Virus record (IMG/VR): IMGVR_UViG_3300037246_001990
Location: 1 to 63,032 of that record
Source: a virus
Lineage: Duplodnaviria > Caudoviricetes
Reading direction: 5' to 3' (one strand)
Length of the DNA: 63,032 bases
A program made the translations under genes and the position numbers. Below the pieces are notes generated by a model. The model saw only the letters and a list, made by a program, of their open reading frames with translations, was not told the origin of the DNA and did not search any database. Shown here one piece after another: positions 5,505 to 45,181 of the stretch (position 1 is its first letter; every line of letters begins with the position of its first letter).

Positions 5505-8500
5505 TTGAAATTTGATCAAATACCACAGTACACTCGATTAGTTAAAAAGGTCTTCTTCCCGATAGATCCCAATGAACCTTTTCTATTGGTTTATATTTCC
5601 GAAAATTCATCTCTTATTGAAGATTATGCAAGACTAAATATGAGAAGAATTGATGTGCGTCATGTTGTTGTGCCAAAAACTAGAGTACCAATGACAATAC
5701 TTAATGAACCATTAAGAAAAATATATAAATCTCTTGGACTACTTTCATATTCTACAGTTATGGTATTTCCAAAAGATAAGAATTTATTTTATGATTTAAC
5801 ACCATATTTAAAGAAAGTTGATGCTTCATATAGACCAACAACGTACAGACAAAGAGCAGGTTTTTTAATTAAGGATCTTATCTTTAAATCATTTGCATCG
5901 TTTCCATCTAATTATAAAAAAGTTTTAATCTATTCTATAGATATAACTAAACCAATCAACTCATTTCCAAATAGAAAAATATTTCCTATTCTGAGAGATT
6001 TGAAAGAAGGAAATCCAAACTTTGATCATATGATGTTAGTTACTCTGGATGAAGGTTCTGCTAGATTTAGAGCTTTAATAAAAGACGGCGAATATAAATT
6101 CCAAAGAATATATAACTTACTTAAAAAGATTAAAATAATAAGTAGTGAAGAAGAAAAGCAAGAAGAAGTCGATGCAGCATCAAATGAAATATTGAAAAAA
6201 ATTTCTGATACTATAGCACCAGGAGATAAAGGAAAAGTTAGATCAGCAATACAAAATTTTTTATCAAAGGATCAAAAATCATTAGATCAAATATCAACAG
6301 GTAGAGTTTCAGGATCTGATAAAGATAGAGTCGCTGTAGCTTCAGTATTATATAGTACAAGCGGGGATCTTAGTAAAGCAAAACGACTCGCTAATGCTGT
6401 ATCAGATAAAAAATTATCAACCGCAGTTAAAGCAGTAAATAAGCAATATGCAGATAATTTATTAGAAACAACCAAAGCAGTTTCATTGACAGATTCTATT
6501 TTCTTACAACAAGCAGATATTCCAAAACAACTTGATTATATGACTCCTGAGCATTTATTTCAAAAAAGAAAAATTGACTTTGAAACAAATCTAAGAAACG
6601 ATATGATAAATGCTTTTAAGGTTCTTGAAGGTCAAGATCTTCCAATGCAGTTTCAATCATTAACAATTGAAGATAAACCTCCTAGAGCAGGTGAAATTGA
6701 AAAATCAGATATAGCAAGAATTGTTGCTATTATAATTGGAAAAGATGGAAAGAAACATAAGGTCCGCTTCAACATTCCAAAAATCGATCCAGACACTGGA
6801 ACGTTTAGAGTAAACGGAAGAAAGAAATGTCTAATTAACCAATTGGTTTTAAATCCAATAAGTTTTCCAGGTGAATATGAAGCGAAGTTTGAAAGTTCAT
6901 ATTCTGTATTTAGAGTCTATAGTAAAAAAATGCAGAGTCAACCATTCCTACAAATTTATATGGGAACATTTAGAATTCCGTTATTAGTGTTCCTTTCATT
7001 TGCTTTTGGATTTGACCACACGCTTGAGAATTATGGAATTAAATATGACATTGTTGAAAAGAGACCAGCTAAAGATGAAATTTTTACAAAAGTTCCATCT
7101 TCATATCTCGTATTTAAAAATGTAAATACTGATTTAAAACAAGAGCTTGTAAATTCATTCTTGAGAGCTAGAGTTTCAGATTTCAAAATAGATCATACAT
7201 TTGCTTCGAAAAAATACTTTACAGAACTTATACTACAAATAACTGGAAGGATTAATTCAACGTATCATATAAATTTAAATATAAAAAATATAGTTGATCC
7301 TGTTTCAAAGCAAGTATTGATAAATAAACAGTTACCAAATGATCTTGAAAATATCATTAAATATATGGCATCTAAAGCAACTGATGGTTATAAAGAAGAT
7401 AGAAATGATCTGACAGTTCAAAGAACTAGAAACTCTGAAATTCTGGTTCATTTAGCACAAAAACAAATTCTTGCTGCATATACAGAATATAAAGAACAAT
7501 ATCTTTCAGGAAATAAAGATGCAAAACTTACAATACCAGAAACAAATGTTATAAGTCAGTTTAACAGACTTGAGATTGTTCAGGATATGGAATATGCAAA
7601 TCCTCTAGAAGAAATGGCAACCATAACAAAAGTATCTCCTGTTGGTAAATCAGTTGGAGGTATTCCTGATAAGGAAGCAGTTCAATTAGATGCCGGAAAT
7701 GTTCACGATTCATATTTTGGAAATATTGATCCATTAGATACAGCAGAAGGTGCGAACATTGGTATTACACAACAACTAGCTATAGATGCTTTTATAACAT
7801 CTGCAAGAGGATTGTTTGGTCAAAAAGAAATTAAAGATACTGAATATGGCGGAATACTTTCTACTAATGCTGCAATGATTCCATTTGTAGGGAATAATGA
7901 TGGTAATAGAATTCTAATGGCAGTCAACCAAGCAAAACAAATGATTCCTTTATTAAATCCTGAACCTCCAGCTGTTCAATCAGGTTTCGAATCAGTATTG
8001 ACAAATGTACTATCAGATAGTTTTATAAAACGATCTCCATGTAAAGGAAAGATCGGAAAAATTAGTTTAGATAATATTGATGTTATATGCGAAGGTAATA
8101 AAAAACAAAAAGTTGATATTAGTCCAGTCCATTTGAAATCTGGATCTGGTAAAAATACTTTAAGCACATTTAATCCAATTGTCAAAACAGGGCAATCAGT
8201 AAAGCAAAGACAAATAATTGCAGAAGGCAGTGGGATAAGCGAGGGAACAATTTCTCTTGGTAGAAATGTATTAGTTGCTTATACACATTATAAAGGATAT
8301 AACTTTGAAGATGGTATTGTTATAAGTGATAGATTAGCAAAAAATAAAAAACTTGTATCACTTCATGGTATTGAAGAAGAAATTATAATTGATGAAAAAG
8401 ATAAAGTCCTTCAAATTATTGATATCGGAACAGATACTAAAAAGGGAGATGTTCTATTAAAGAAAACAATTGGAGATATAGATGAACTATTAGGATTTAC

Positions 8501-23952: not shown

Positions 23953-25225
23953 AGAATATGGACAGTATTCAAACTATAGAAATTTTCCATTGGATTTAGA
24001 TGGATTGAAACCTGTAGAAAGAAGAGTCTTATTCTCAGCGTATAAAATTGCGAGAAATAAACTTGCAATATGTAGAAAGGTTGATTCATATACAACTGGT
24101 AACTTTCATCCACATGGAGAATGTTATGGAACTATAGTTCAGTTAGTTAAACAAGGGTTTCTTACTGGACAAGGAAACTTCGGTTCAAATGTTGGAGTAG
24201 AATCAACAGGCGCTGCTGCACCAAGATATACTCAATGCAGATTAAACACACGAACATTAGAATTGGCATTTAAATACATTAAATATGTACAATGGGTTGA
24301 AACAGAATTAGAAGATACAGAACCACTATACCTTCCAACTATGTATCCAATTTGTTTATTAGGGAATGAACCAACTCAAGGAATTGGGTTTGGATATAAA
24401 ACATACATCCCTTGCTATACAGCAGAAGATCTACAAAAAAGGTTACTATGGTTACTCGGAATCAGAAAACGAAAACCAATTATTATTCCAATAACAGATT
24501 GTAATATAACATCAACTCCAGAAGAGTTAGATCAGTTATTAACCACAGGTAAAGCTAAGATTACTGTTGAAGGTATTATAGAAATAAATCAACGAAATAA
24601 CACAGTAACATTAAAATCTTGGCCACCAGGAAAAAGATTTGAATCTTTTCTTAATAAATTCTCAAAAGAATTATCAGATGGTCTTATAGGATTTAGAGAT
24701 GCATCTGTAACTCATACTGAAATTATATTTCAGGTATTGAGAGAAAGAAATCGAGATAAAATCTTTAATGAATTTATTGAAAAATTAAGAGATGTTATAA
24801 AAGGAAGTATCTCATTTGAAACAATTGTTGTTGAGGTTGATCGTAAAGTTATTTACAGTTCAATAGACGATTTACTTCTAAATACATTTAAAATGTTTAG
24901 AGAAGCAAACGAAAGAATGCTTGTAGAAGAAAAAGAACGAATATTAAATATTATAGAAGAGTACCTCACACTAGAACTGATAAGAAAACCATTGAGTGAT
25001 TGTTTGAAAGCTGAATATGATATTGAGGCAACTCTTGACGAGATTACGAAAACAACAGCTGTACAGAGAGAAGTAGCATATGAACTAATTAAAAAATATA
25101 GAATTATGAAGTTACTTACTCTAAATACTGATACAACTGAATTAAATAGCCAATTAAAAAGCATAGAAGATAATTTAAAAAATATTTCAGAATTTGTACT
25201 AGACCAATATGGAGGATTTAAGTAA
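23924..25225 (+). CDS. Type IIA DNA topoisomerase breakage-reunion subunit (GyrA/ParC-like, lacking C-terminal domain)
   Basis: DGLKPVERR, HPHGE, GQGNFGS, AAAPRYT catalytic Tyr, GIGFGY; only 433 aa. Confidence 0.93.
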   Translation: MDQKLPTLYKEYGQYSNYRNFPLDLDGLKPVERRVLFSAYKIARNKLAICRKVDSYTTGNFHPHGECYGTIVQLVKQGFLTGQGNFGSNVGVESTGAAAPRYTQCRLNTRTLELAFKYIKYVQWVETELEDTEPLYLPTMYPICLLGNEPTQGIGFGYKTYIPCYTAEDLQKRLLWLLGIRKRKPIIIPITDCNITSTPEELDQLLTTGKAKITVEGIIEINQRNNTVTLKSWPPGKRFESFLNKFSKELSDGLIGFRDASVTHTEIIFQVLRERNRDKIFNEFIEKLRDVIKGSISFETIVVEVDRKVIYSSIDDLLLNTFKMFREANERMLVEEKERILNIIEEYLTLELIRKPLSDCLKAEYDIEATLDEITKTTAVQREVAYELIKKYRIMKLLTLNTDTTELNSQLKSIEDNLKNISEFVLDQYGGFK

Positions 25226-25650
25226 TGTTTTATTTAAAAAGACATTTTACATTTGCAGGAGGTCATAGATTGAGTAAACATAAAGGAAGATGTTTCTCAA
25301 TTCATGGCCATAATTACGACGTATGGGTGACAGTTAAATCGCCAAAATTAAATGAAAATGATATGGTTATGGATTTTTCAGATTTGAAAAAACATGTTGA
25401 TCCCATCATAGATGAATTTGATCATTGTTTAGTAGTCAATGAATGTGATCAAGAACTTGTAGAACCTTTTAAAAAGAAAGGTATGAGAGTAATGGTGTTG
25501 GGAGATTATGATCCCACAGCAGAATCTATGGCCGTACACATCTTTGTTCTTCTTAATAATATTTTTATAAGAAACTACAATGATATATCAGTTGATCAAA
25601 TTGAAGTCTTTGAAAACGCCAAATCCTCGGCCATATATCGTGGGGACTAA
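25225..25650 (+). CDS. queD: 6-carboxy-5,6,7,8-tetrahydropterin synthase
   Basis: GHRL...CFSIHGHNY, MVMDFSDLK, FDH, PTAE. Confidence 0.9.
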   Translation: MFYLKRHFTFAGGHRLSKHKGRCFSIHGHNYDVWVTVKSPKLNENDMVMDFSDLKKHVDPIIDEFDHCLVVNECDQELVEPFKKKGMRVMVLGDYDPTAESMAVHIFVLLNNIFIRNYNDISVDQIEVFENAKSSAIYRGD

Positions 25651-27057
25651 ATGGAGACTTTCGAACTTATAAGAAGATCCGGACTTTTAATACCTAGGAA
25701 ATATCAGAATACTAATGAGTATGTTGAAGTGAAACAATCATTAGAACGTAGAACCAAAGCATACAACACTTCAGATTTTACAATAAATAAATTTTATATA
25801 GAGTCTGAAAAGTTTCTTTTAGTTCCTAGGTATTTTCCAATCAAGCAATATTTTAATTCGTATAGTATGAAGAATATGATGAATGAAGGGGAAGAGATTC
25901 ATATAAATCATACCATAAAATCAAGAAGTAAATCACAAGAAAAAGCAATGGAGTTTATGTTAAATCATGAACGAGGTATATTGAAATTAGCACCAGGAGT
26001 TGGAAAGACAGTTGTTTCAATATATATGATTGCTGAACGAAAACGAAAGGCGATTGTTTTAGTTCATAGAGATCCATTAGCAAAACAATGGAGAAATCGA
26101 TTCTTACAATTTACTGATTTAAAAGAAGATGATATTGCAAGATTAACTACCCCAACATTCAAAAATGATCTCAAGAAACCAATAATTATTTCTACAGTTC
26201 AAACATTCAGATCATTAGTCAATAGGAAACCCAAAGAGTTTTTAACTCATTTAAATGATGCGGGTATAGGTGTATTAGTCGCGGATGAGGTTCACACATC
26301 AATTGGCGCTCCAAAGTTATCTGAATGTTCAATTCATATTCCATCAAGATACACATATGGTTTGAGTGCAACTCCAGATAGATATGATGGAAATGGAGAT
26401 ATAATTGAATTTCATCTTGGTAATATATTTTCTGATGATGATGTTGAAGGGACAATGCCTGCAAAAGTTACAGTTATCCTATTGGATTATCAAATAGATA
26501 CACCCCGCAGACATAAGTATATACATTGGGGTGGCGATTTTCAGCGAGCAAGATATCTCAATCTAATAAAAAAATCAACGCCCTTCAGGGAAGCAATGAG
26601 GGGGTTGTTGGCGCGTTTAAACAATAGAAATCTCATCTGTATGGCAGAAAGAATTAAATTAATTGAGGAATTATACGATGAAACTCAATCGGATAGTAAA
26701 GCAAAATTCTGTGGTAAAGGTGACTTAGATACTTTAGATTACAAACTCACATTTGCAACACCAGGCAAATGTCGAGATGGAATTGATGCTCCTTGGAAGG
26801 ACTCTATAATAATGACTTCTCCAATATCTAATATTGAACAATTAGCTGGAAGAATTAATCGAATTAGTCCTGAAAAGAAAACTCCAATAATTCTTGATAT
26901 GGTTGATTTTGGCTGTCAACGAATCGCCAGAACATTTTGGGGAAGAAAAAAGTTTTATGAAAACAAACAATGGCCAGTACGTTATTTTCTATTTGCGAAT
27001 AACGAATTGAAACCATTGGATGACGATGAAGCAATAAAAATAATAGGCGGTGAATAA
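25651..27057 (+). CDS. Superfamily 2 helicase (UvsW/XPB-like)
   Basis: APGVGKT, DEVH, GLSATP, GIDAP, QLAGRINR. Confidence 0.9.
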   Translation: METFELIRRSGLLIPRKYQNTNEYVEVKQSLERRTKAYNTSDFTINKFYIESEKFLLVPRYFPIKQYFNSYSMKNMMNEGEEIHINHTIKSRSKSQEKAMEFMLNHERGILKLAPGVGKTVVSIYMIAERKRKAIVLVHRDPLAKQWRNRFLQFTDLKEDDIARLTTPTFKNDLKKPIIISTVQTFRSLVNRKPKEFLTHLNDAGIGVLVADEVHTSIGAPKLSECSIHIPSRYTYGLSATPDRYDGNGDIIEFHLGNIFSDDDVEGTMPAKVTVILLDYQIDTPRRHKYIHWGGDFQRARYLNLIKKSTPFREAMRGLLARLNNRNLICMAERIKLIEELYDETQSDSKAKFCGKGDLDTLDYKLTFATPGKCRDGIDAPWKDSIIMTSPISNIEQLAGRINRISPEKKTPIILDMVDFGCQRIARTFWGRKKFYENKQWPVRYFLFANNELKPLDDDEAIKIIGGE

Positions 27058-27425
27058 TGAAAGTAAAACTAGATTTTATAACCAATAGTAGCACAACTTG
27101 TTTCGTTATTATGGGAGCAAGAATTAAACCAACTGATATACCAGAACAACTGGTAAAAAGTATTGAAGAAAAAGAAAATATAACTCTTCACGATCCAACC
27201 GAATGGGATTACATTGAAACTTTTATTAAAGGAAGTGATCTCGCATGTTCATATGGAGAAGATTATGATTATCGAGAAGAAGTTATGGTTGGTATTCCTT
27301 TTACTGCAATGAAAGATGATGAAACATTAGCACAATTAAAATCAAGATCTCAGTTGCAAATTTTAGAACACACAGGAATTAAAACTAGTGTATATTACAT
27401 TGAAGAGGCATGGAGAGATGGTTAA
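27057..27425 (+). CDS. DFxTNSS-leader family protein 1
   Basis: N-terminus MKVKLDFITNSSTT. Confidence 0.75.
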   Translation: MKVKLDFITNSSTTCFVIMGARIKPTDIPEQLVKSIEEKENITLHDPTEWDYIETFIKGSDLACSYGEDYDYREEVMVGIPFTAMKDDETLAQLKSRSQLQILEHTGIKTSVYYIEEAWRDG

Positions 27426-27811
27426 TGAAAATAAAACTTGATTTCATAACTAATAGCAGTTCAACTGCATATGTAGTCATGATACCTGATAATTTTAATG
27501 TTGTCGAATCTTTAGCTAAGATTTTAAATACAAATAGTTATCAAGATGATCTATATGAATATTGTGATGATGATGAACCAAAATTTATTGAACAGATTTC
27601 TGAGAATATTTCAAATCTAATAAACGGTGAAGATCTTTGGGGTTATGATACACCTTGTTTTTCTACAACACAAGAGATATTAGAAAAAGAAGATCTTATA
27701 ATTGCTTCTGTAGATATTTCATCAGATGGAGATGGTCAGATTACACCAGCAAATACAAAAATAATTAAAAAATTACAACAAAGGTTTGAAAATAATGAAA
27801 ATAAAACTTGA
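27425..27811 (+). CDS. DFxTNSS-leader family protein 2
   Basis: N-terminus MKIKLDFITNSSST; start reassigned to ATG 27425 (TAATG overlap). Confidence 0.75.
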   Translation: MKIKLDFITNSSSTAYVVMIPDNFNVVESLAKILNTNSYQDDLYEYCDDDEPKFIEQISENISNLINGEDLWGYDTPCFSTTQEILEKEDLIIASVDISSDGDGQITPANTKIIKKLQQRFENNENKT

Positions 27812-28142
27812 TTTTATAACCAACAGCAGCTCAACTGCATTTATGATCCAAAATACATCTGATAAAACTTTGAATCTAACTGATTTTGCAAAAGAAAATA
27901 TGCAGCTTTTAGATGATTATTTAAATGAATATGATTGGAACAAAGTAAACCCAAGATATACATCTATAAGACTTTTAGAATCAGCTGCAATGAACAATAT
28001 AGAGTTTAAATCAGGAGTAGAAAAATATTGTATTTTTGGAGATGAAGATGGATCAGTGATTGGAGCAGTTTATGATTATATGTTAAGAGGAGGAGGAAAA
28101 TCCAAAAACTTTACATGGTCGTTTCGAGAATACTTAAGGTAA
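27795..28142 (+). CDS. DFxTNSS-leader family protein 3
   Basis: N-terminus MKIKLDFITNSSST; start reassigned to ATG 27795. Confidence 0.75.
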   Translation: MKIKLDFITNSSSTAFMIQNTSDKTLNLTDFAKENMQLLDDYLNEYDWNKVNPRYTSIRLLESAAMNNIEFKSGVEKYCIFGDEDGSVIGAVYDYMLRGGGKSKNFTWSFREYLR

Positions 28143-28146
28143 TAAT

Positions 28147-28338
28147 ATGACAAGAGATACACATCAACTTTTTTGGGAAGAGACAATTCAAGAAATATTA
28201 GGCAATCAAAATCCTTGTTTTATATGTTTAGTTAGAGTAACCTGCAGAAAATCTTTTTCAAACGGTTCAGCATGTCAAGAGCTTGCAGAAAAATTAACTA
28301 AAGCATTAGAGGAGTTAAAAAATGAAAATAAAACTTGA
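28147..28338 (+). CDS. Small Cys-cluster protein (PCxxCLxxxxC family)
   Basis: NPCFICLVRVTC...SAC. Confidence 0.6.
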   Translation: MTRDTHQLFWEETIQEILGNQNPCFICLVRVTCRKSFSNGSACQELAEKLTKALEELKNENKT

Positions 28339-28609
28339 TTTTATAACAAACAGTTCAAACGCAAGTTTTATGATTCCAAAATCATGTTTGACTAAAATAC
28401 AAATTGGATTAATATATAATCATATTGAAATAGGAATGCTAATAGCAAAGAATAAAAACCTTTCTATCTGGACAGATCCATGGGAAATAAGCGAAAATAA
28501 ACACATAATTGAAGGCGATACATCTATGGATAATTTTGATATGACATGGTTTCTTGAAGAGATTGGTGTTCCATCAGAGTGTATAAAAATGGCAGGATCA
28601 AATTACTGA
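28322..28609 (+). CDS. DFxTNSS-leader family protein 4
   Basis: N-terminus MKIKLDFITNSSNA. Confidence 0.75.
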   Translation: MKIKLDFITNSSNASFMIPKSCLTKIQIGLIYNHIEIGMLIAKNKNLSIWTDPWEISENKHIIEGDTSMDNFDMTWFLEEIGVPSECIKMAGSNY

Positions 28610-28627
28610 TACTAAAAAGGAGAAGTC

Positions 28628-28825
28628 ATGATAAGGAAGTTTAGTCAAAAAGCATTTACCTTGATTGAATTGATGATTGTTATTGTAATTATTGCTATTG
28701 CTATTGCAATTGGCCTTCCAAAATTCATGGAATACAATGAAAAGCACAATACAATCAAGAATGATAAACAACTCGAGGAAACGATTGATTTAAATAAAGA
28801 TCAAGATTCTGGGAGCAAACTATGA
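28628..28825 (+). CDS. Type IV prepilin-like peptide
   Basis: Basic leader then AFTLIELMIVIVIIAIAIAIGLP class III signal/N-methylation motif with Glu5; only 65 aa. Confidence 0.8.
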   Translation: MIRKFSQKAFTLIELMIVIVIIAIAIAIGLPKFMEYNEKHNTIKNDKQLEETIDLNKDQDSGSKL

Positions 28826-29844
28826 AATTTTTATTCACTGCAGACATACATTTATCAAGATACTCACAAGATAAAGTGGAGTCTGAAACTAATCTACCTG
28901 AGCGATTACATAGTATAAAACAAACTTTAATAAGCATGGCAGAATATTGCTGTAGTAATGATATAGATACATTCATTATCGGCGGAGACATCATGCATAG
29001 TAAGTCAATTATCTATTCAATCGCTCAGGAGGTTATGTTAGATTTCTTTGAAGATTATAGTCACCACAATCAGATAAACTTTACAGTTCTTGATGGCAAT
29101 CATGATTTATCAGGAAAGGGATCTGGAGCAATATCATCTTTAAGATCTCTTAACAGTATTGATAATGTAGACTGGGTTACTAAAAATCCAACGACCACTT
29201 CTAATATAATATCTATTCCTTATTCATATGATGTTGTTAATCAAGTAAAACAAAACAGCAGAAAAATCCTCATTTCACATTTCGGTCTTAATGAAGGAAT
29301 GTTAAATTCAGGCATTAGCATTCAATCAGATATTTCATTAAATGATCTGATTGGAAGATATGAATTAGTATTGCTGGGTCATTATCATAAACCTCAAGAG
29401 ATCATAACAGATCAAATCAAACTCTACTATGTAGGATCTCCAATTCAATTAGACTGGGGAGAAAAGGGAGATGAAAAAAGATTTCTAGTTATAGATACAG
29501 ATACTTTAGATGTTCAGAGTATTCCAACTCAAGGATATAAGAAGCATATTGAATTGGAAATAAACAATTCAAATAAAGCTCAAATTCTTGATGAAGCTGA
29601 ACAACAAAAACAATCAGGAAATTATGTAAAACTTATAAAAACTGAATCTGTCGAAATAGAATCAGATCAATTTTCAGTTATAGACAAAACCGATAAAGAT
29701 ATAACAAATCGGGGAATAACTTCTTCTATGTCAGAAGCAGACAAACTCAAACGATTTATGGAAATAAAAGAGATACCTTCTTCTAAAACTGAAAGATATT
29801 TAAAAGCTGGTCTTGAAATTATAGACAGTTGTGAGGGGGAATAA
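28822..29844 (+). CDS. SbcD/Mre11-like metallophosphoesterase nuclease
   Basis: ADIHL, GGDIMH, GNHD, SHFG, LGHYHK, YVGSP. Confidence 0.9.
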   Translation: MKFLFTADIHLSRYSQDKVESETNLPERLHSIKQTLISMAEYCCSNDIDTFIIGGDIMHSKSIIYSIAQEVMLDFFEDYSHHNQINFTVLDGNHDLSGKGSGAISSLRSLNSIDNVDWVTKNPTTTSNIISIPYSYDVVNQVKQNSRKILISHFGLNEGMLNSGISIQSDISLNDLIGRYELVLLGHYHKPQEIITDQIKLYYVGSPIQLDWGEKGDEKRFLVIDTDTLDVQSIPTQGYKKHIELEINNSNKAQILDEAEQQKQSGNYVKLIKTESVEIESDQFSVIDKTDKDITNRGITSSMSEADKLKRFMEIKEIPSSKTERYLKAGLEIIDSCEGE

Positions 29845-30161
29845 TGGCAGCAGGAAGTCCTGGACACACAACAAAAACCAAGAAAAAAGTTGAAGTAGGC
29901 ACGAGCAAATTAGTTTTAGTTATTGTTGAGATGTATGCATCTGAAGATTCAAAAATGAAGAATGTGGCTATATATTTAGTGGGATGTATAATTGAATCAT
30001 ATAACGATAAAGCTGAAATGGTAGAAGATATATTAGGAACCTATGTAAGTAAAACCGAACTGCTTGATAGTATGAGAGTAAATATGAAAAGAATATATCC
30101 TGAAGCTTCTAAAATTTTATCTGAAGTATTTGGTATATTTCTATTTGGAGAAAAGTTATGA
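29844..30161 (+). CDS. Hypothetical protein
   Basis: ORF coupled between sbcD- and sbcC-like genes. Confidence 0.55.
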   Translation: MAAGSPGHTTKTKKKVEVGTSKLVLVIVEMYASEDSKMKNVAIYLVGCIIESYNDKAEMVEDILGTYVSKTELLDSMRVNMKRIYPEASKILSEVFGIFLFGEKL

Positions 30162-32344
30162 GAGAAATAAATTTTGTAGAAGTTGGAATGGAAAACTTCG
30201 GTCCTTATATTGATAGAATGATTCTTATGTTCCAAAACAATGCATTAACTTTATTAACAGGACCAAATGGAATTGGAAAAACAATGGCGTTAGATGCTCT
30301 TCCTTTTACACTATTTGGTTCTACAAGTAAGGGGGCGAGGGGCGATGATGTTGTTAATAATGTAGTAGGACGCAATTGTTATACCTGGGTCCAATTCTAT
30401 GTAGATAAAGATAGCTATTTAGTAGAACGGTATCATAAATATACAAAATTGGGAAATACAGTCACGATCTCAAAAAATGGAAAAGAGCCATATAAGAAGG
30501 GACAGAAAGAAGTTCTTCCAGAGGTTGAAAAGTTATTGTGTCCGAAGAAATCATTTATGAATACTTTAATGTTTGGTCAAAAGATAAAAGACTTTTTCAC
30601 TGATTTAGTTGACTCTGATAAGAAAGAAATATTTCGAAAGATTTTGAATTTGGATCGGTATCAACTATTTTATGATAGAACAAAAGAAATTCTTTCTGAG
30701 TTAAAAGAATCTATTATAGATTTATCAAATAGAATAATAATTGCTGAAAGGTTACGTGTTGATGCAGATGAACAATTAAAAATTCTCAATAAGAAGAAAA
30801 AAGATTTTTATATAGAGCGAGATGATAATATAAAACATCTTGAACAGGCAATTAAGTCTAACAAGAGGATGTTAGATAACTGGGAAGATCAGCTTTTAAA
30901 GTTAAAAGAAAATCAACAAGATTGGAAAGATCTTGAAAATAAACTTTTAGAATTTGAAGCTGAAGAAGAAAAAATTGATGCATCAATTAAATCTGAGAAA
31001 GAAAAACTTGAGAATCAGAAACAGTTAAAGATAACACAATTAATGGCTGATGGTGGAAAAGCAATTAGTGAAATTAATGATCACGCCCACATCAGAACAC
31101 AAGAAAGAAAAGATTACTCCATGAAATTAATTGAAAATATTGGAGATCAAGTTCAAAAACTTTTAGAGGATAAAAACAAAATTGATATTGATATAAATAA
31201 GCATTTGGACTATATACATAATTCCCAAATACAAGCTGATGAGTTAAAAGTAGGACTTCAAGGTTCAACTTGTCCAACATGTTTGCAAGATATTACTAAA
31301 CAATGTGAAACTACTTTAAAAAATAAGATCAAACAATTTAATGATGGCGCGTTTGAGGAACAACAATTAATTGACACAAAACTTAAACCTACAAGAAAGA
31401 AAATTTTAGCTGAAGTTGAAACGCTTTCCGATAAGAAAATTAAAGCAAAAGAAATTATGGAACTAGATGTTAAAGATATTGAATTTATTTGCATACAAGA
31501 TAAGCAAAATGCAGATCAAAAATTAAATAGTGCATTAAATAAAGTCGATAAATTATCAGAAATAATGTTCCTTAAGATTAAAGAAAATCATCAAAATAAA
31601 CTCAAACCGATCTATACAGAACGAGACCAAATAATGAAAAAGGCAAGAGAACATAGATCCTTAGATAAAGATATTGACGAGATGCAAATGACAATAACAA
31701 CTATCGAAAGAACTAATCTTCAAAAGCTTCTTGATCTCAAAGCAAAAGAATCACTTGAATTTGATGATACTCAAATATTTTCTTACGAAAAGAAGAAACG
31801 ACTTTTAATAATTGAAGTTGAAAATTTATTTAACGAGACTGAAACTAAAAGAGATGATGTAGAAATATTTGAATTTTGGAAGTTGGCATTTTCTTCGAGC
31901 GGTATCCCTTCTATGTTGATAGATGAAGCAGTACCGTTTATGAATAAAAAGGTTTCAGAATATCTTGACAAACTAACAAATGGTCGATATATAGTTTCAT
32001 TTGATACATTGGCGGAAACTAAGAAAGGGGAGTTCAGGGATAAAATCTCAGTGAATGTTCTTGATACACATACAAGAGCATCATCACGAATACAATTATC
32101 AGGAGGTCAAACTCGTATAATTGATATAGCAACAATCTTGACACTCGGAGATCTTCAATCAAATATTCAAGATGTTAAATTTAATATTTTATTATTTGAT
32201 GAAATCTTTGATAGTTTAGATGAAGAAAATATCGGGTTTGTCTCAAAAGTCCTATCAAATATGAAAGTTGGAAAATCAATTTACTTAATTTCTCATAGGC
32301 ACGAAGATCAATTAGAAGCAGATGAAGTCCTGACATTAAACTAA
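30158..32344 (+). CDS. SbcC/Rad50-like ABC ATPase
   Basis: GPNGIGKT, coiled coil with CPTC zinc hook, LSGGQ, LLFDEIFDSLD, LISH. Confidence 0.92.
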   Translation: MREINFVEVGMENFGPYIDRMILMFQNNALTLLTGPNGIGKTMALDALPFTLFGSTSKGARGDDVVNNVVGRNCYTWVQFYVDKDSYLVERYHKYTKLGNTVTISKNGKEPYKKGQKEVLPEVEKLLCPKKSFMNTLMFGQKIKDFFTDLVDSDKKEIFRKILNLDRYQLFYDRTKEILSELKESIIDLSNRIIIAERLRVDADEQLKILNKKKKDFYIERDDNIKHLEQAIKSNKRMLDNWEDQLLKLKENQQDWKDLENKLLEFEAEEEKIDASIKSEKEKLENQKQLKITQLMADGGKAISEINDHAHIRTQERKDYSMKLIENIGDQVQKLLEDKNKIDIDINKHLDYIHNSQIQADELKVGLQGSTCPTCLQDITKQCETTLKNKIKQFNDGAFEEQQLIDTKLKPTRKKILAEVETLSDKKIKAKEIMELDVKDIEFICIQDKQNADQKLNSALNKVDKLSEIMFLKIKENHQNKLKPIYTERDQIMKKAREHRSLDKDIDEMQMTITTIERTNLQKLLDLKAKESLEFDDTQIFSYEKKKRLLIIEVENLFNETETKRDDVEIFEFWKLAFSSSGIPSMLIDEAVPFMNKKVSEYLDKLTNGRYIVSFDTLAETKKGEFRDKISVNVLDTHTRASSRIQLSGGQTRIIDIATILTLGDLQSNIQDVKFNILLFDEIFDSLDEENIGFVSKVLSNMKVGKSIYLISHRHEDQLEADEVLTLN

Positions 32345-32715
32345 TGAAAATAAAACTTGATTTTGTAACCAATAGTTCATCCTGTTGTTATGTTATATCA
32401 TCACCCAAACCAATGAAAACATCTGATTTTGTTAGTATATCAGGAGGTAGCTTTAATGAATTTCAGTCTCTTTCCACTATAGAAGAGTTAATTAAATACA
32501 CTGATTCTGAACCATGCGACTGGGTAAAGAAAGCTACAGGACCGAGAAGATTTTGGGGATGTCAACCAAGAGAATATGAGAAATATAAAGCTATAATCGA
32601 ATCAGGAAATTCTGTGATAATAGCTCATGTTGAAAGAAATTTTGAGGATGTAGAAGTATTTGATATAGCTTTATCAAAGATGAACTGTGAAGTATTAGAA
32701 AGGGAATATGATTAA
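32344..32715 (+). CDS. DFxTNSS-leader family protein 5
   Basis: N-terminus MKIKLDFVTNSSSC; DWVKKATGP similar to protein 6. Confidence 0.75.
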   Translation: MKIKLDFVTNSSSCCYVISSPKPMKTSDFVSISGGSFNEFQSLSTIEELIKYTDSEPCDWVKKATGPRRFWGCQPREYEKYKAIIESGNSVIIAHVERNFEDVEVFDIALSKMNCEVLEREYD

Positions 32716-33092
32716 TGAAAATAAAACTTGATTTTGTAACAAACAGCTCGTCTTCATGTTTTCTTATGGCAGTTCCAAAACACCTTGAAACGGATTTAGA
32801 AAATTACGTAACCGAACTCGCCAAAGATCCAGATTCAATAAACGAGGGAGTTCAACTATATAAAGTTGCATACACATTAAAAGAGCTTGACACCTTTACA
32901 AATGACGGTCCTCTTGATTGGGCGTCTAAACCAGGAGGACCCCAATTTAATAATTTATCAGAAGAGTCATATAATAGTTCAAAAGAGGCAATTGAAAGTA
33001 GTCATATAATCGTTGATGTATCTGTAGATTATAATGTATGCAAAAAATTTGTGGATTCATGGAAAGGATATATAATAAGGGAAGAGGGATGA
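32715..33092 (+). CDS. DFxTNSS-leader family protein 6
   Basis: N-terminus MKIKLDFVTNSSSS; DWASKPGGP. Confidence 0.75.
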   Translation: MKIKLDFVTNSSSSCFLMAVPKHLETDLENYVTELAKDPDSINEGVQLYKVAYTLKELDTFTNDGPLDWASKPGGPQFNNLSEESYNSSKEAIESSHIIVDVSVDYNVCKKFVDSWKGYIIREEG

Positions 33093-33748
33093 AAATAAAA
33101 ACAGACTTTGTAACAAATAGTTCAAGTACATGTTATGTATTAACAGCAATTATAACAGCTCATCTTCCGTGTCTTTCAAAAGGATTTGAAATATTAAATA
33201 AATTTTATCCTCATCAAGGTTTTCTATATAAAGATTATGCAAATATAGTGGTAAAAGTAGATCCGGAAGATGCTTATGAAGAAACTAAACCATTGCACAA
33301 TACAAATTTAACTATGATCAATTCAACTAAATACAATGAAGAAGATGATACTGAAAAAGAGATTACTTATTTTCAATTAATGATTGATCTATATAATCCT
33401 TATTGGAATGATATGGAACTTGTGGTCAAAGAATTTTTAGAAAATCTTTTCTTTAAACAATTAAAACAAAAAATACCTGCATCACAATTAATGTATTTTT
33501 CTTTTCCATCTAGCATACATGGAGATGGTTGGGATGGTGGAGATCCAGGAGGTCCAGAACACGATATAGTATATAAACATGATTTATTCAAAGCAAAAAC
33601 AAAGATGGGTATACTAACCATAATGGATTCATCAATCATTCCGGAAGTGAGATCAATAGAACAACCACTCAATTTAAATGAAATTCTGTTAGATAATATT
33701 AATCAACAGGGGTTACGTTTGGAGGAACATAATGATAAGAATAGTTAA
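33089..33748 (+). CDS. DFxTNSS-leader family protein 7
   Basis: N-terminus MKIKTDFVTNSSST at ATG 33089 (ATGA overlap); GDGWDGGDPGGP motif. Confidence 0.75.
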   Translation: MKIKTDFVTNSSSTCYVLTAIITAHLPCLSKGFEILNKFYPHQGFLYKDYANIVVKVDPEDAYEETKPLHNTNLTMINSTKYNEEDDTEKEITYFQLMIDLYNPYWNDMELVVKEFLENLFFKQLKQKIPASQLMYFSFPSSIHGDGWDGGDPGGPEHDIVYKHDLFKAKTKMGILTIMDSSIIPEVRSIEQPLNLNEILLDNINQQGLRLEEHNDKNS

Positions 33749-34763
33749 TTGGTTATTGACAAGAAAATGTAACCTTGATTGTGGTTACTGTGCAATTGTA
33801 AAAGACTATCATGGAAAACCAGATGAATACCCAGATATGAGTGATTATCATCAAAATGAACTGGGTCTTAACGATATAGTCAATTCTCTGACAAGATTTC
33901 ATAAACATAATCCTGATTGCTTTCATATATTTTATGGAGGCGAACCAATGTTAAGAAAAGACATTGCTCAGATTATACAGTATTGTCATACACACTCTAT
34001 TCATTACACAATAATCTCAAACAATACAATAGAAGTTCAACCCTTGGTCAAGAAATTAATCAAGCAAGTTGGAAAGCTTGAAGGATATACAGCTTCGATT
34101 GACCCAATCTTGGTAGAATCAAATCCTAGTTTAACAGACAGACTAAAAAAGACAAAACAGGGATTTGAATTTTTATTAGAAATGAGACAACATTGTAATG
34201 ATGTTGTTGCTGAAGTAACTGTTATGAGAGAAGATCAACATCTTATACATAAGTTAGTTAAACATCTAAGCGATTTTGGAATCAATAGCGATATAACATT
34301 TGTTGATATTGCTAAAACTGAGTATTATGATTTTTCAAATGTTAAATCTAGGTCAACTCTAATTCGAAAAACACCTGATCTAGCATATCAGTTAATGAAT
34401 ATTTTAACTAATGATGATGTAGATATTCATATGAAAAATTATTTGATTCCTGCAATATACAAAATTTTACCTTCAGAGATGGATTGTGAAATTGAAAAAT
34501 CTCTTCATAATGTAACAATTGATGCTGATGGTTCAGTGAGATTGTGCCTCAGAATCCGAGGAGTCAATGCGCCCAATCTTATTAATGTGACAGATCTTGT
34601 TTCTTGTGATGGATATATAAATCCACTTGCTCATAAACTTATAATCAAAGATAAAATGGAGTACTGCAAATTATGTAATCATACTTGTCAACTGATGAGT
34701 AAGATAATAGACGATAAAAATCTAGGTCCAGATGATTTAGTTCACCTAGATCGGAGGAAATAA
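33732..34763 (+). CDS. Radical SAM enzyme with C-terminal Cys cluster (SPASM/twitch-like)
   Basis: CNLDCGYC CxxxCxxC, YGGEP, IDADGSVRLC, CKLCNHTC. Confidence 0.88.
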   Translation: MIRIVNWLLTRKCNLDCGYCAIVKDYHGKPDEYPDMSDYHQNELGLNDIVNSLTRFHKHNPDCFHIFYGGEPMLRKDIAQIIQYCHTHSIHYTIISNNTIEVQPLVKKLIKQVGKLEGYTASIDPILVESNPSLTDRLKKTKQGFEFLLEMRQHCNDVVAEVTVMREDQHLIHKLVKHLSDFGINSDITFVDIAKTEYYDFSNVKSRSTLIRKTPDLAYQLMNILTNDDVDIHMKNYLIPAIYKILPSEMDCEIEKSLHNVTIDADGSVRLCLRIRGVNAPNLINVTDLVSCDGYINPLAHKLIIKDKMEYCKLCNHTCQLMSKIIDDKNLGPDDLVHLDRRK

Positions 34764-34764
34764 A

Positions 34765-35136
34765 ATGCCTGAAGATGTAAGCACTAATATATTAACCAGT
34801 GCCATTGAATTTTGGCACAAGATCAATACCGAAAAGGAGGTAGTAGTTAAATTCACAAAGCTGGACGGAACAATTAGAATTATGAGATGTACTTTGGATT
34901 TCACAAAAGTTCCTAAGGAAGATCGTCCAAAGAAAGTTGATATTCCAAAAATCTTAAAACTGTTACAAGATAATGGAATAATGCATGTTTATGATCTAGA
35001 CAAAAAAGGTTGGAGATCAGTTCCTTTTCAAAGAGTTGATTATCTAAGAACTAGAGGAAACGTTCAATATAAAGTCCAGCCAATGAAACGAACAGGAGTT
35101 GATGAGAATGTCTATTCTAAGAGATTTAATAAGTAA
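34765..35136 (+). CDS. WYL-like/SH3-fold phage protein
   Basis: FTKLDGTIRIMRCTL...VYDLDKKGWRS. Confidence 0.7.
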   Translation: MPEDVSTNILTSAIEFWHKINTEKEVVVKFTKLDGTIRIMRCTLDFTKVPKEDRPKKVDIPKILKLLQDNGIMHVYDLDKKGWRSVPFQRVDYLRTRGNVQYKVQPMKRTGVDENVYSKRFNK

Positions 35137-42505: not shown

Positions 42506-45181
42506 ATGCCAAAAATATTGGACTATGAAAAATTTTGTGAAGACCTAGAGGAAGTGACCTCTCTAAAAACTATTGGTAAAAGAAAATTTCATCCAGAAGG
42601 TTTATTCTCTGAACAAATCTTCGGTCCAGTAAAGAACTACACTTGTCAATGTGGCACATACTATGGAGTTTCAAGATCTGGAGGACAATGCGATATATGT
42701 GAAGTTGATATTACAAATAGCGATGTAAGAAGAACTAAATTTGCTAAAATAACTTTACCAATGAAAGTTGTCAATCCTCTGTTTTATGATTTATTAGTAG
42801 ATCTTGGAGGGAAGAGCTTCAAATCTGCCTTAGATGACTTAATGAAACAAGAGAAAAGTGTTCTTTATATGGATGAGGGTGAACATGTTGTTATAGTTAA
42901 TCCTGAGATATTATCGCCAGAAATTGAAACTTGGGAAAAAACAGATGCAATTGAGAAGTTAGTAACAGATGTTGCAACTACTATGGCAGAAGATGGTATT
43001 GCGGAATGGAAACTAATAAAGGATAATATCAATAATTTATTCCTTAGTAAGATAATTGTCCTACCACCAGACCTCAGACCAACATCAAAGAGTACAGGCA
43101 ACAGACAACTCATGGATAAAATCAATAGGTATTATGTCCAAATTTTAACTAAGAAAGAAATTATGAGAGAGACAACTATTGATATTAGATCAGATAAAAA
43201 TATGTATTACACATACTTCAAACAACTTCAAGGAGTTGTCGATGAATTATACGATCAGATATTAGCAAAGATGGCAAAGAAAGAAGGTTTAATAAGAGGA
43301 AATATTTTAGGGAAAAGAATTGATTTCTCTGGAAGAGCAGTAATATCTCCAGATCCAACTTTAAATCTTAACGAATGTGTGTTGCCATATTTAATGATTC
43401 TTGAAATGTTCAAATTGCCTATTGCAAGGAGAATAATTCAGCTTGGTAAATTCAAACTATTGAATAAAGCAATTGATTTTGTAGACAGATGCATAGCTAC
43501 TAATTCTCCAGTTTTATTTAAGGTTTGTGAGGAGATTGTCAAAGATGAGGTATGTATATTAAATCGTCAACCATCTCTTCATAGACTTGGTATGCTTGGA
43601 TTTAATATCAAAATTTCTTTAGATCAAGTTATTAAGATTCATCCTTTGGTTTGTCATCCATTTAATGCAGACTTTGATGGAGATCAAATGGCAGTTTATA
43701 TTCCTGTTACTGAGGAAGCAAAACAAGAAGTCATTGATAAAATGTTTGTAACTAAAAATTTAAATAGTCCGGCAAATGAAACCTTGACAACAATTCCAAA
43801 TCAAGATATAGTATTGGGAATATATTTCTTAACATCTGATAAATTTTCTAATGTGGATGGACATAAATTATTCAATGATTGTTTGCCCGATGATTATGTT
43901 AATATAACAGGTGTTGTTGATCAGAAAAAATTACTTGAGATCTTAAATCATATTAAAGATACATATTCATATGAACAGACTCAAAAAGTTTTAGATGATG
44001 TAAAGAGAATTGGATTTAAATATTCAACTCTTTATGGATGCACCTTATCATTAGAAGACTTCAACGATCAGCCATTCAGAGAATCTAGAGATGCTATATA
44101 TGCAAAACCAACAGTCAGAGAACAATTGGTTGGAGTTTCTAGTGATGAAATTACTAATGAGTTAAGAGAAAAATTTGCTTACTCATATATGATCGACTCT
44201 GGAGCAAGAGGAAGCTGGGATCAAGTCAAACAGTTAATTCTTACAAGAGGATTTGTAGCTAATTTCGATGGAGAAATATTACCATTACCAATCAAACACA
44301 ATCTAGTAGAAGGTCTCAGTCAAGAGGAATTTTTCTATTCAACATTTGGTTGTAGAAAGGGACTTCTTGATATTGCACTGAACACTGGAACCTCGGGATA
44401 TTTGTCAAGGAAATTAATCTTTACTTGTGCAAACCTTCAAATAGACTTGGAACTTGTAGATTGTGGAACCACTGATACACTTACAGTCAATGTTAAAGAT
44501 AAAAGAAAAGCAGCAATGCTTGTAAATAGATACTGTCTTTCGGAAGATGGCAAATCACTTTACAAAATCACAAAAGAAAATTGTAAAGATATTATTGGAA
44601 AACAAATTGAAATCAGAAGTCCAATATTATGTAAATCGCCAAAGATTTGTCAAACTTGTTATGGGGATCTTCATAAGTCTATTAACAGTAGATTCGTTGG
44701 AATTATAGCTGCACAAACCCTTGGAGAAAGAGCAACCCAATTAGTTCTAAGAACTTTCCATACATCAGGTTCAGCAATTATCAAAGGAGCTGAAGATAAT
44801 GTTCAAGATTCAATGAAGCAAAAAGACATTATTGGTGATCTGGCAACAGTTGCTTCACTTTTACATAAGTTCAAAAATAAAGATTATATAGATATAGTTG
44901 ATCAATTATTTCAAGCTTATGATGCAGATATTTATCACGTTCATTATGAATGTGTAGTTGCTCAGTTAATGTGGAAAGATTTTAAGAAATGGAGACTATT
45001 AAAAAATAGAGAAAAAGTTAAACCAAATTATTATAGTGTACAATCAGTTCCAAATCAAGAGTCATGGATTTTGGCTATGGCATTTTCAAATCCAAAGAGA
45101 TCAATCCTTCATGGCATCTTATATGAAGGAAGGTATTCTGGAGTTATGGATAAGATCTTAAAAGGCGAAAGAATAACATGA
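42506..45181 (+). CDS. rpoC: Multisubunit RNA polymerase beta'-like subunit (set 2)
   Basis: GLFSEQIFGP, Zn finger CQCG...CDIC, VLPPDLRP, GKRIDFSGRAVI, NRQPSLH, NADFDGDQM, GYLSRKL, TQLVLRTFHTSG. Confidence 0.96.
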   Translation: MPKILDYEKFCEDLEEVTSLKTIGKRKFHPEGLFSEQIFGPVKNYTCQCGTYYGVSRSGGQCDICEVDITNSDVRRTKFAKITLPMKVVNPLFYDLLVDLGGKSFKSALDDLMKQEKSVLYMDEGEHVVIVNPEILSPEIETWEKTDAIEKLVTDVATTMAEDGIAEWKLIKDNINNLFLSKIIVLPPDLRPTSKSTGNRQLMDKINRYYVQILTKKEIMRETTIDIRSDKNMYYTYFKQLQGVVDELYDQILAKMAKKEGLIRGNILGKRIDFSGRAVISPDPTLNLNECVLPYLMILEMFKLPIARRIIQLGKFKLLNKAIDFVDRCIATNSPVLFKVCEEIVKDEVCILNRQPSLHRLGMLGFNIKISLDQVIKIHPLVCHPFNADFDGDQMAVYIPVTEEAKQEVIDKMFVTKNLNSPANETLTTIPNQDIVLGIYFLTSDKFSNVDGHKLFNDCLPDDYVNITGVVDQKKLLEILNHIKDTYSYEQTQKVLDDVKRIGFKYSTLYGCTLSLEDFNDQPFRESRDAIYAKPTVREQLVGVSSDEITNELREKFAYSYMIDSGARGSWDQVKQLILTRGFVANFDGEILPLPIKHNLVEGLSQEEFFYSTFGCRKGLLDIALNTGTSGYLSRKLIFTCANLQIDLELVDCGTTDTLTVNVKDKRKAAMLVNRYCLSEDGKSLYKITKENCKDIIGKQIEIRSPILCKSPKICQTCYGDLHKSINSRFVGIIAAQTLGERATQLVLRTFHTSGSAIIKGAEDNVQDSMKQKDIIGDLATVASLLHKFKNKDYIDIVDQLFQAYDADIYHVHYECVVAQLMWKDFKKWRLLKNREKVKPNYYSVQSVPNQESWILAMAFSNPKRSILHGILYEGRYSGVMDKILKGERIT

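Follow-up and report, generated by a model that had tools for sequence, protein, structure and literature searches.

Why should otherwise dissimilar genes of one phage begin with the same short peptide, and is that peptide read by an enzyme encoded next to them? These questions are raised by a 63,032-nucleotide stretch of tailed-phage DNA (IMG/VR virus record IMGVR_UViG_3300037246_001990; hereafter the window, a 63-kb record with an estimated completeness of ~20%). Seven of its open reading frames (ORFs), at 27057, 27425, 27795, 28322, 32344, 32715 and 33089 and all on the forward strand, were confirmed to start with MK(I/V)K(L/T)DF(I/V)TNSS, and the last of them runs into a gene for a radical S-adenosylmethionine (SAM) enzyme. 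A sequence-only reading of the DNA had taken this common start, here called the tag, for a leader recognized by that enzyme in the manner of peptides that are synthesized ribosomally and modified post-translationally (RiPPs). The products of the seven are members of a protein class, very large and so far without a name, in which only the N-terminal tag is common to all. With a probability of roughly 0.55, we think, the tag is where a RiPP-like radical SAM/SPASM system working at the protein level recognizes and modifies its targets; the sequence-only reading was probably right in kind but named the wrong enzyme for this locus. The genes concerned are the following.

27057..27425, plus strand: tag protein 1, 122 amino acids (aa), isoelectric point (pI) 4.6; body class common to 36 other sequences (alignment A3)
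27425..27811, plus strand: tag protein 2, 128 aa counted from MKIKLDF, pI 4.1; its body class is the largest, with 81 sequences
27795..28142, plus strand: tag protein 3, 115 aa, pI 5.1; body class with 50 members (alignment A2)
28322..28609, plus strand: tag protein 4, 95 aa, pI 5.0; body class with 11 members
32344..32715, plus strand: tag protein 5, 123 aa, pI 5.0
32715..33092, plus strand: tag protein 6, 125 aa, pI 4.6
33089..33748, plus strand: tag protein 7, 219 aa, pI 4.9; overlaps the start of the radical SAM gene by 17 nucleotides
33732..34763, plus strand: radical SAM enzyme (Pfam PF04055), referred to as the window type, with a SPASM/twitch-like, Cys-rich C-terminus

A common N-terminal tag on unrelated proteins

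In an alignment of the seven proteins, M1, K2, K4, D6, F7, T9, N10, S11 and S12 are invariant, followed by three variable positions, F or Y and a hydrophobic residue. Overall identity is just 25–31% and the likeness is confined to the first ~18 residues. As the sequence-only reading had stated, the bodies are divergent and acidic; the proteins have 95–219 aa, a pI of 4.1–5.1 and a net charge of −2 to −14. That reading's description of the seven genes proved accurate throughout. All seven conform to a family pattern that begins at residue 1 with M-K-h-[KR]-x-D-F-[VI]-T-N-S-S-[ST] and continues with x-x-[FY]-h-h (h, hydrophobic). When the 63 kb were scanned with a degenerate DNA pattern for DF[IV]TNSS, the seven sites were recovered on the forward strand and none on the reverse strand or with the backwards control; a relaxed protein pattern returned the same seven alone, and its reversed-order control none.

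Across codons 6–12 (DFxTNSS), the 21 pairs of genes differ by 68 synonymous and 12 non-synonymous codon changes, and serine in the tag is encoded by AGY as well as TCN codons. The synonymous excess together with the use of both serine codon families argues that the repeat is kept by selection on the peptide and not by recent copying of DNA, which bears out the protein-level selection proposed earlier.

Profile searches against Pfam, PHROG and NCBIfam placed none of the seven proteins above noise. Tag protein 6 was the sole one to match phrog_7397, over residues 1–31 only (E 0.0087), and a tblastn search with it gave a single chance-level match. None of the seven window proteins is a full-length member of phrog_7397, whose profile has 170 positions and which carries no functional annotation; the window proteins touch it by the tag only. 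By contrast, a body class of 165–177 aa, the commonest one behind the GIMG-type enzyme described below, matches phrog_7397 from end to end (E 1.8e-12); proteins of cultured Straboviridae such as GAP161_111 are of this class.

A profile built from the seven proteins retrieved 346 metagenomic proteins at E≤0.01. Among the 120 matches listed, 119 contain the motif, which in 116 begins at residue 6, five residues behind Met1, and none has a Pfam domain. Across the class the tag reads M-K-(I/V/F)-(K/R)-x-(D, rarely S/G)-F-(V/I)-(T/S)-N-S-S-(S/T)-x-x-(F/Y)-hydrophobic. In 29 related phage loci each copy of the tag stands at the start of an ORF, on the same strand and usually in tandem. From residue 23 on, by contrast, the bodies are unrelated: 208 distinct sequences fell into BLAST clusters of 81, 50, 37, 11, 9, 4, 3, 2 and 2 members plus nine singletons, and profile–profile comparison of the body classes gave a probability of 10.3% at most. 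An hhalign comparison of class A3 with a tag protein of Sporomusa sp. KB1 aligned residues 1–18 only, with 97.6% probability.

A 32-residue profile of the tag matched 10,017 representatives of 50%-identity clusters at E≤1e-3; of the 150 best matches, 140 start with residue 1. An LRR_5 protein of 1062 aa and another protein of 408 aa likewise begin with the tag. A search for fused or longer forms gave only two proteins at E<0.1, which is weak evidence. An exact-pattern scan of species-representative genomes yielded at least 120 stretches, and the cellular counts given below rest on 110 loci taken from these. The cellular matches listed come from Clostridia, Bacteroidia, Negativicutes, Campylobacterota, Flavobacteriia, Methanoculleus and Thermoplasmatales, with tagged ORFs of 138 aa in the median and up to 846 aa. 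Pfam and NCBIfam searches of three cellular tag proteins and their cassette neighbours gave no specific match. Against the known and candidate anti-phage defence models of PADLOC-DB 2.0, no tag protein matched, no cassette partner could be assigned to a system, and the enzymes hit only the generic radical SAM core of pVip (17–47 bits). A description of the tag–radical SAM pair was not found in the literature by motif or by topic, in a search whose scope did not extend to supplementary files, where family lists may exist.

In four database proteins (P0247, P0249, P0250 and P0368) the tag is matched twice or internally, at residues 126–207. The probable cause is that two neighbouring tag genes were read through or that a start was called wrongly, although genuine tandem fusions are possible. 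A long hydrophobic segment directly behind the tag was seen in five bacterial proteins (L127 289-, L168 3394-, L182 2446-, L204 2137- and L175 4717-). In L127 it ends in ILASC, which is lipobox-like, so that the tag stands in place of the n-region of a signal or anchor.

AlphaFold2 models based on the family alignments were obtained for the products of 27795 (tag protein 3) and 27057 (tag protein 1). Both are confident small α/β domains whose first 10–12 residues are without secondary structure. The former has a predicted local distance difference test score (pLDDT) of 89.5, with residues 1–10 below 50 and a strand at 13–20 within the fold; the latter scores 84.3, with a mean of 53 over the first 10 residues and a strand at 13–23 within the fold. 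According to these models, the first 10–12 residues are a free, flexible peptide and the hydrophobic end of the tag is strand 1 of the domain that follows. In a Foldseek search against the PDB the best E value was 0.85 for the two models, and VIA-align wide gave best Z scores of 3.7 and 3.8. The first model had no match in BFVD, and the second had weak matches only, to uncharacterized phage proteins (best E 3.7e-3, TM 0.47–0.50). ESM Atlas returned unnamed viral clusters only for tag protein 3. The models correspond to no known fold that could be named, which does not in itself establish that the fold is new.

Linkage of the tag to radical SAM/SPASM genes

Linkage of the motif family to radical SAM/SPASM genes, which had been set beforehand as the test that could overturn the sequence-only reading, is present in phage and in cellular loci alike. 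Starting from the motif, an ORF with CxxxCxxC lies within 10 kb in 27 of the 29 phage loci, 12 of which have the window-type enzyme and 15 a different one. The latter, termed the GIMG type, comprises 330–360 aa, has the signature D(I/V)GIMGxCxxxCxFCYQG preceded by ~45 residues, and is mostly encoded immediately upstream of the tag ORFs (in the exceptional loci L024 and L025 it lies ~2.4 kb downstream). It carries the Pfam domains Radical_SAM and SPASM; for PF13186 the enzyme of L014 scores 23.7 bits against a cut-off of 21.5, and three others are just below (15.6–21.0). The nearest NCBIfam models are peptide or cofactor maturases, with scores far below the cut-off (at best 49 versus 500, and for the cellular form 49 versus 650). 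Neither the window-type nor the GIMG-type nor the cellular enzymes attain the curated cut-off of any named NCBIfam radical SAM maturase, among them PapB, SkfB, PqqE, MftC, WgkB, NirJ, AhbD, MoaA, viperin and QueE. A PDB sequence search with the GIMG-type profile gave no match, and ESM Atlas placed the enzyme in generic radical SAM/SPASM clusters.

The reverse approach, starting from the enzyme, led to 80 phage loci that were kept from 293 viral stretches. Same-strand tag ORFs are present in 56 of them by the strict and in 59 by the relaxed pattern; 72 of the 125 tag ORFs lie less than 1 kb past the stop codon of the enzyme gene, 48 further downstream and five upstream. Flanking genes vary among the loci, and apart from the pair none is consistently conserved, including any gene for a protease or an exporter. 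What is conserved is thus the tag–enzyme pair itself.

The same enzyme family is encoded within 2.5 kb and on the same strand in 81 of the 110 cellular loci, where every other neighbour family is limited to 24 loci or fewer. It occurs in two forms: one with ISITNxCxxxCxFCYR, usually directly behind a single tag gene of ~138 aa, and one with GIMGHC and a widened cysteine spacing, usually directly ahead of the tag genes. Five large phage records contain 25 tag sites, of which 16 are no more than 5 kb away from a radical SAM gene, compared with 14% expected, and one of these records has both enzyme types, each adjoining tag genes. At least nine phage contigs hold both radical SAM families. The SAM-cluster cysteines of some tag-linked enzymes are spaced in a noncanonical way, C-x8-C-x2-C in gene 164 of Klebsiella phage Matisse (L122 4941-6086) and C-x8-C-x6-C in a clostridial form.

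Cultured phages also carry the pair. The phrog_7397-type body class has homologues in 145 GenBank records, which are of myoviruses of Klebsiella, Enterobacter, Cronobacter and Citrobacter, and 165 records, with a nearly identical host distribution, contain a distant enzyme of the GIMG family. Cronobacter phage GAP161, whose record cites homologues in RB16 and RB43, and Klebsiella phage Matisse each encode one GIMG-family enzyme (profile E 1e-46; at 90308–91288 in GAP161) and two tag genes; the products GAP161_111 and GAP161_106 have MKIRSGFVSNSSSSSFI in common and then diverge. Culturable phages thus have both members of the pair, albeit not linked to one another.

In 24 cellular loci, mostly those with the ISITN form, a large protein of 465–900 aa is encoded directly upstream of the tag gene (e.g. 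in L125, L128, L133, L138 and L145). No match to these proteins was found in Pfam, NCBIfam or PADLOC, nor, for one of 473 aa, in a PDB sequence search; in L133 the N-terminal segment resembles a trypsin-like protease (GLSGSP). In L145 the gene behind that of the enzyme codes for a protein in which the domain 'integron cassette protein' (PF21648) is present. It may be that the cellular cassette represents a conflict system that is mobile.

The tag as a candidate modification site, and its alternatives

We propose that the tag would act as a docking and modification site for a dedicated radical SAM/SPASM family with D(I/V)GIMGxC...CYQ or ISITNxCxxxCxFCYR at the SAM cluster. A single enzyme would serve many tagged proteins, like a RiPP maturase whose precursors have a common leader, except that the substrate would be a folded protein. 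The enzyme may bind the extended N-terminal strand and abstract a hydrogen within F-(V/I)-T-N-S-S-S, the conserved peptide itself being the probable site of the chemistry. The product might be a crosslink, an oxidation or an epimerization, which sequence cannot tell apart. Precedents are known for the oxidation of serine (anaerobic sulfatase-maturating enzyme, anSME), for the linkage of an aromatic residue to a β-carbon (three-residue cyclophanes) and for an ether link (rotapeptides). A matching GIMG-type enzyme for the window proteins is probably encoded beyond the ~20%-complete fragment, as in related contigs; the radical SAM enzyme of the window, which is of another family and tied to gp46 and WYL_2, may act on the tag as well or leave it alone. 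An enzyme–substrate relationship is the simplest reading and accounts for an invariant, unstructured peptide on unrelated bodies and for several paralogues per genome. It also accounts for the order-preserving adjacency to a radical SAM/SPASM gene in phages, bacteria and archaea, where no other neighbour is conserved.

RiPP precursors are short leader–core peptides: the enzyme binds the leader, usually via a RiPP recognition element (RRE), and the core, once modified, is set free by a protease. The maturases of streptide, sactipeptides and ranthipeptides have the same Radical_SAM core and SPASM-type auxiliary cysteine domain as the enzymes linked to the tag, and their genes likewise adjoin one or several genes with a short invariant peptide. 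Models of such maturases (PapB, SkfB, WgkB, mycofactocin and PqqE) are also the best NCBIfam matches, yet all of them are below threshold. The tag proteins differ from leader–core precursors in that they have folded bodies (pLDDT 84–90) and range from 95 to more than 1000 aa, with a peptide of ~16 residues at the extreme N-terminus that has no invariant Cys, Trp or Lys. Moreover, neither a leader protease nor a transporter is conserved near the pair, and there is no canonical RRE domain. Of the RiPP-like recognition of the N-terminal motif that had been suggested, the strong genomic linkage has stood; the linked enzyme, by contrast, is of another family, and the targets are folded proteins. 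The alternatives considered alongside it, autoprocessing and a catalytic strand, found no support. The mode of action of the tag system may nevertheless be RiPP-like.

FxSxx-COOH proteins are found with radical SAM/SPASM enzymes in ternary VMAP conflict systems, as set out by Kaur et al. (2020, eLife, PMC7159879). As in our case, a variable precursor there carries a short, Phe/Ser-rich terminal motif that is a predicted target of the radical SAM–SPASM enzyme; that motif, however, is C-terminal, is released by a peptidase and belongs to vWA-MoxR/AP-ATPase systems (PMC7159879). The tag is N-terminal, has no conserved partners of the vWA-MoxR/AP-ATPase type and is abundant in phages. A precedent for a SPASM enzyme that is encoded beside its target and modifies a full-size protein is CrpC of Methanococcus voltae, which installs thioether crosslinks on the protein CrpA (PMC13692751). 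CrpA is described there as Cys-rich and as receiving ranthionine links, and CrpC as having a predicted RRE (PMC13692751). Unlike CrpA, the tag has no conserved Cys, and the tag-linked enzymes are unrelated to CrpC beyond the superfamily.

anSME oxidizes a Cys or Ser of sulfatases to formylglycine within the motif C/S-x-P/A-x-R and represents, to our knowledge, the only well-known SPASM chemistry on Ser. The likeness consists in a SPASM enzyme acting on a Ser that lies close to the N-terminus of a folded protein, within a short conserved motif. However, the anSME motif does not occur in the tag, no anSME model is among the NCBIfam matches listed, and the targets here are not sulfatases.

Several observations weigh against the proposed enzyme–substrate relationship. 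None of Cys, Trp, Lys and Tyr is invariant in the tag, and the well-studied SPASM chemistries, thioether and Lys–Trp formation, are therefore not obviously applicable. The ~45 N-terminal residues of the GIMG type are too short for a canonical RRE, and the window-type enzyme has no N-terminal domain at all ahead of C13 of its SAM cluster. The partner is not nearby in 21 of the 80 enzyme-first phage loci and in 29 of the 110 cellular loci; in the large phage records G001 and G002, six of ten and two of three tag sites, respectively, lie more than 5 kb from any radical SAM gene; and in GAP161 and Matisse (Straboviridae) the enzyme and tag genes, on the same strand, are ~20–24 kb apart. Many of the 'cellular' loci are on contigs of metagenome-assembled genomes (MAGs) and could be phage or other mobile DNA. 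No GIMG-type gene was found in the window, which says little, given that the window represents one fifth of a genome and that at least nine contigs hold both families. Finally, it is from sequence and gene linkage that we infer binding, modification and the identity of the acting enzyme.

The obvious other candidate is the enzyme encoded in the window itself, which might modify the seven proteins alone or beside a GIMG-type enzyme. We regard this as rather unlikely. Its membership in the radical SAM superfamily is clear (PF04055, 35.8 bits against a cut-off of 29.5). In 61 homologues the CxxxCxxC cysteines C13, C17 and C20 are invariant and so are C252, C272, C312, C315 and C319, eight in total. 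The sequence-only reading had pointed to the run of the second array of tag genes into this gene and to the additional C-terminal cysteines, and both the 17-base, same-strand overlap with the ORF of tag protein 7 and the SPASM-like set of five invariant C-terminal cysteines speak for this enzyme. PF13186 (SPASM) did not match the enzyme at E≤1, and NCBIfam models of the SPASM family align through residue 315 below their cut-offs. Its best NCBIfam scores are 44.3 versus 180 for viperin_w_prok, 41.9 versus 325 for MoaA-archaeal, 38.4 versus 340 for PapB and 26.2 versus 260 for QueE, and a PDB sequence search with its profile retrieved MoaA only (3.8e-7). The family has 737 metagenomic members with generic names only. 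BLASTP detects no similarity between the window and GIMG types (E 0.11), so that outside the radical SAM core the window type has no detectable kinship to the universally linked family. The context of the window type was analyzed in 80 loci (L243–L322) found by starting from the enzyme, for which the following neighbours matter.

30158..32344, plus strand: gp46/Rad50/SbcC-like ORF, 728 aa, with tblastn matches to phage genes for an 'SbcC-like / recombination endonuclease subunit'
34765..35136, plus strand: WYL_2 protein, an Sm-like SH3 barrel (Pfam PF10902, score 36.4 bits, cut-off 26.7)

A tag ORF lies within 6 kb of the window-type enzyme in 37 of these loci, in 30 of them less than 1.5 kb upstream, and the arrangement recurs in the large phage records G001 and G003 and in the MAG contig L209. 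No tag ORF is present within 6 kb in the other 43 loci. By contrast, gp46 is directly upstream in 67 and WYL_2 directly downstream in 64 of the 80 loci, which makes these two the constant partners of the enzyme, whereas the tag genes look like optional inserts in the preceding slot. Moreover, the tag-adjacent cases all belong to one syntenic lineage, and their adjacency is confounded by common ancestry. The gp46–radical SAM–WYL_2 trio hints at a nucleic-acid-related role of the window-type family. A complex prediction of the window enzyme (with SAM and two 4Fe–4S clusters) and tag protein 3 scored 0.00; made without controls, it favours neither side.

The tag might also be a signal for targeting, interaction or turnover that is not modified at all, the enzyme being a co-travelling gene of the same pathway. 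Capsid packaging as in T4-like phages, a degron for a protease or unfoldase, a membrane or secretion signal and β-strand docking on a hub protein are conceivable, with T4 capsid targeting and the ClpX N-motif as analogies. Such a role would suit a tag that is always at the extreme N-terminus of unrelated bodies, whose start (Met-Lys-hydrophobic-Lys/Arg) resembles the n-region of a signal peptide, whose residues 2–9 alternate between hydrophobic and charged as in an amphipathic strand, and which in some cellular proteins is followed by the hydrophobic segment mentioned above, with its lipobox-like ILASC in L127. In most tagged proteins, however, the hydrophobic segment is too short for a membrane or signal role, and the polar TNSSS turn is conserved more strictly than the hydrophobic part. 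Above all, a mere signal leaves unexplained why a radical SAM/SPASM gene is the sole consistent neighbour in phages, bacteria and archaea, and we consider it unlikely.

The T4 capsid-targeting sequence consists of ~10 N-terminal residues ending in an (L/I)-x-Glu site for the prohead protease, and T4 internal proteins are likewise small, unrelated and fast-evolving proteins with an invariant N-terminal peptide of ~10 residues, encoded in variable arrays. The tag, however, is not a T4-type capsid-targeting sequence: the protease site needs Glu, and no Glu is present in residues 1–18 of the seven proteins or in the consensus of 119 homologues. Moreover, unlike the T4 signal, the tag occurs in bacterial and archaeal chromosomes and tracks a radical SAM enzyme rather than head genes. 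A nuclear-import signal of nucleus-forming phages was also considered and dropped, the tag being found in T4-like phages and cellular genomes as well.

According to a further explanation, the tagged proteins form one hyper-divergent domain family in which the N-terminal hairpin is the structural or ligand-binding core, e.g. of a sponge or sensor for the product of the radical SAM enzyme. The two AlphaFold2 models have a similar order of elements (β – helices – β – helix – β) with the post-tag strand inside the sheet, and small acidic proteins encoded in arrays are typical of many phage counter-defence binders. A common fold of the two models is unproven, however, and similarity in sequence and profile ends at residue ~18. 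The most conserved residues, 1–10, are unpacked in both models, and the bodies range from 95 to more than 1000 aa and include the LRR_5 protein and membrane-anchored forms. This explanation is quite improbable in our view. N-terminal nucleotide loops of the HAD, PP-loop, TIR or flavodoxin type were dropped as candidates, the likeness having been noted by eye without profile support.

Array 1 also contains an ORF that lacks the tag.

28147..28338, plus strand: 63-aa Cys-rich ORF with C-x2-C-x6-C...C (four Cys)

In the loci searched, it has homologues in only six besides the window (L008, L032, L033, L037 twice and L041 twice); the two copies of L037 are at 6004–6195 and 6192–6416, and the duplicates occupy the same position in L037 and L041. 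Its product is possibly an unrelated small protein or an alternative substrate of the radical SAM enzyme. That it is a sacti- or ranthipeptide-like precursor on which the window enzyme acts, with the tagged proteins as bystanders, is very improbable: its shortness, its four Cys, its place in the array and its same-position duplicates would suit the Cys thioethers which SPASM enzymes often form (cf. CrpC/CrpA, PMC13692751), but it is missing from most loci of the window-type enzyme and lies 5.4 kb from the radical SAM gene, with gp47 and gp46 in between.

Genomic setting and significance

The window is a fragment of a giant phage, as judged from matches to PHROG families for RNA polymerase β subunits, the large terminase and the large subunit of topoisomerase II. 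Further features are listed here.

2463..4814 and 42506..45181, plus strand: two paralogous ORFs resembling RNA polymerase β subunits (PHROG annotation 'RNA polymerase beta subunit')
25225..25650, plus strand: QueD/6-pyruvoyl-tetrahydropterin-synthase-like ORF, 141 aa, assigned by motif reading, in the conserved block
28628..28825, plus strand: 65-aa ORF with the N-terminus FTLIELMIVIVIIAIAIAIGLP, between array 1 and the gp47-like gene
28822..29844, plus strand: gp47/Mre11-like ORF, a candidate label from a metallophosphoesterase motif
within 28822..32344, plus strand: 105-aa ORF between the gp47-like and gp46-like ORFs

We take both RNA polymerase β subunit families to be phiKZ-like, and the presence of two paralogues points to a giant phage that encodes multisubunit RNA polymerases for itself. 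Three DNA sequencing runs contain the sequence, the best of them from a marine sediment metagenome, which may be where it originated, and no RNA run is listed. The genes around the tag arrays form a block in the order topoisomerase-like, QueD-like, helicase-like, array 1, gp47-like, gp46-like, array 2, radical SAM and WYL_2, in which gp46 was identified by tblastn and WYL_2 by Pfam, and the topoisomerase-, QueD-, helicase- and gp47-like labels come from motif reading only. This order is kept in 11 related contigs, with 41–68% protein identity across the genes of the block, and a blastn search of the region against GenBank phages gave zero matches. The two tag arrays thus occupy two slots of a replication/recombination block, one behind the helicase-like gene and one behind gp46. 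Judged by eye, the N-terminus of the 65-aa ORF resembles a type IV pilin or pseudopilin leader followed by a hydrophobic helix, and a counterpart was found in L027 alone (tblastn, E 5e-6). A 234-aa putative radical SAM ORF is located elsewhere in record G001. These phages may possess a 7-deazaguanine DNA-modification pathway.

The locus is one instance of a very large, undescribed system that combines the tag with a radical SAM/SPASM enzyme. Radical SAM/SPASM enzymes are known chiefly from the synthesis of small peptidic natural products and of a few cofactors; in the present case, one of their families is linked to a portable tag, found in no fewer than 10,017 sequence clusters from viruses and both prokaryotic domains. 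The tag proteins exceed no Pfam, NCBIfam or PADLOC threshold, and the linked enzymes match generic Radical_SAM/SPASM models only. The pair is carried by the cultured Pseudotevenvirus GAP161 and the cultured Slopekvirus Matisse and by the isolates Sporomusa sp. KB1 and Arenibacter troitsensis DSM 19835, and is thus directly testable. The tagged phage proteins may be directed at the host or at its defence, a role in keeping with proteins that are small, acidic and quick to diversify and whose genes lie among those of early replication. It is tempting to speculate, though we hold it only tentatively, that the tag marks thousands of unrelated proteins for a novel covalent change of FVTNSSS by a dedicated radical SAM/SPASM enzyme and that giant phages arm arrays of acidic, host-directed proteins in this way. 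If the tag is modified, it would represent a new and very widespread post-translational modification of proteins, and with a Ser/Thr/Asn-rich, Cys-free site unlike the classic SPASM substrates the chemistry would probably be new, too. The system would then provide a handle on the role of the small acidic 'ORFan' proteins of giant and T4-like phages.

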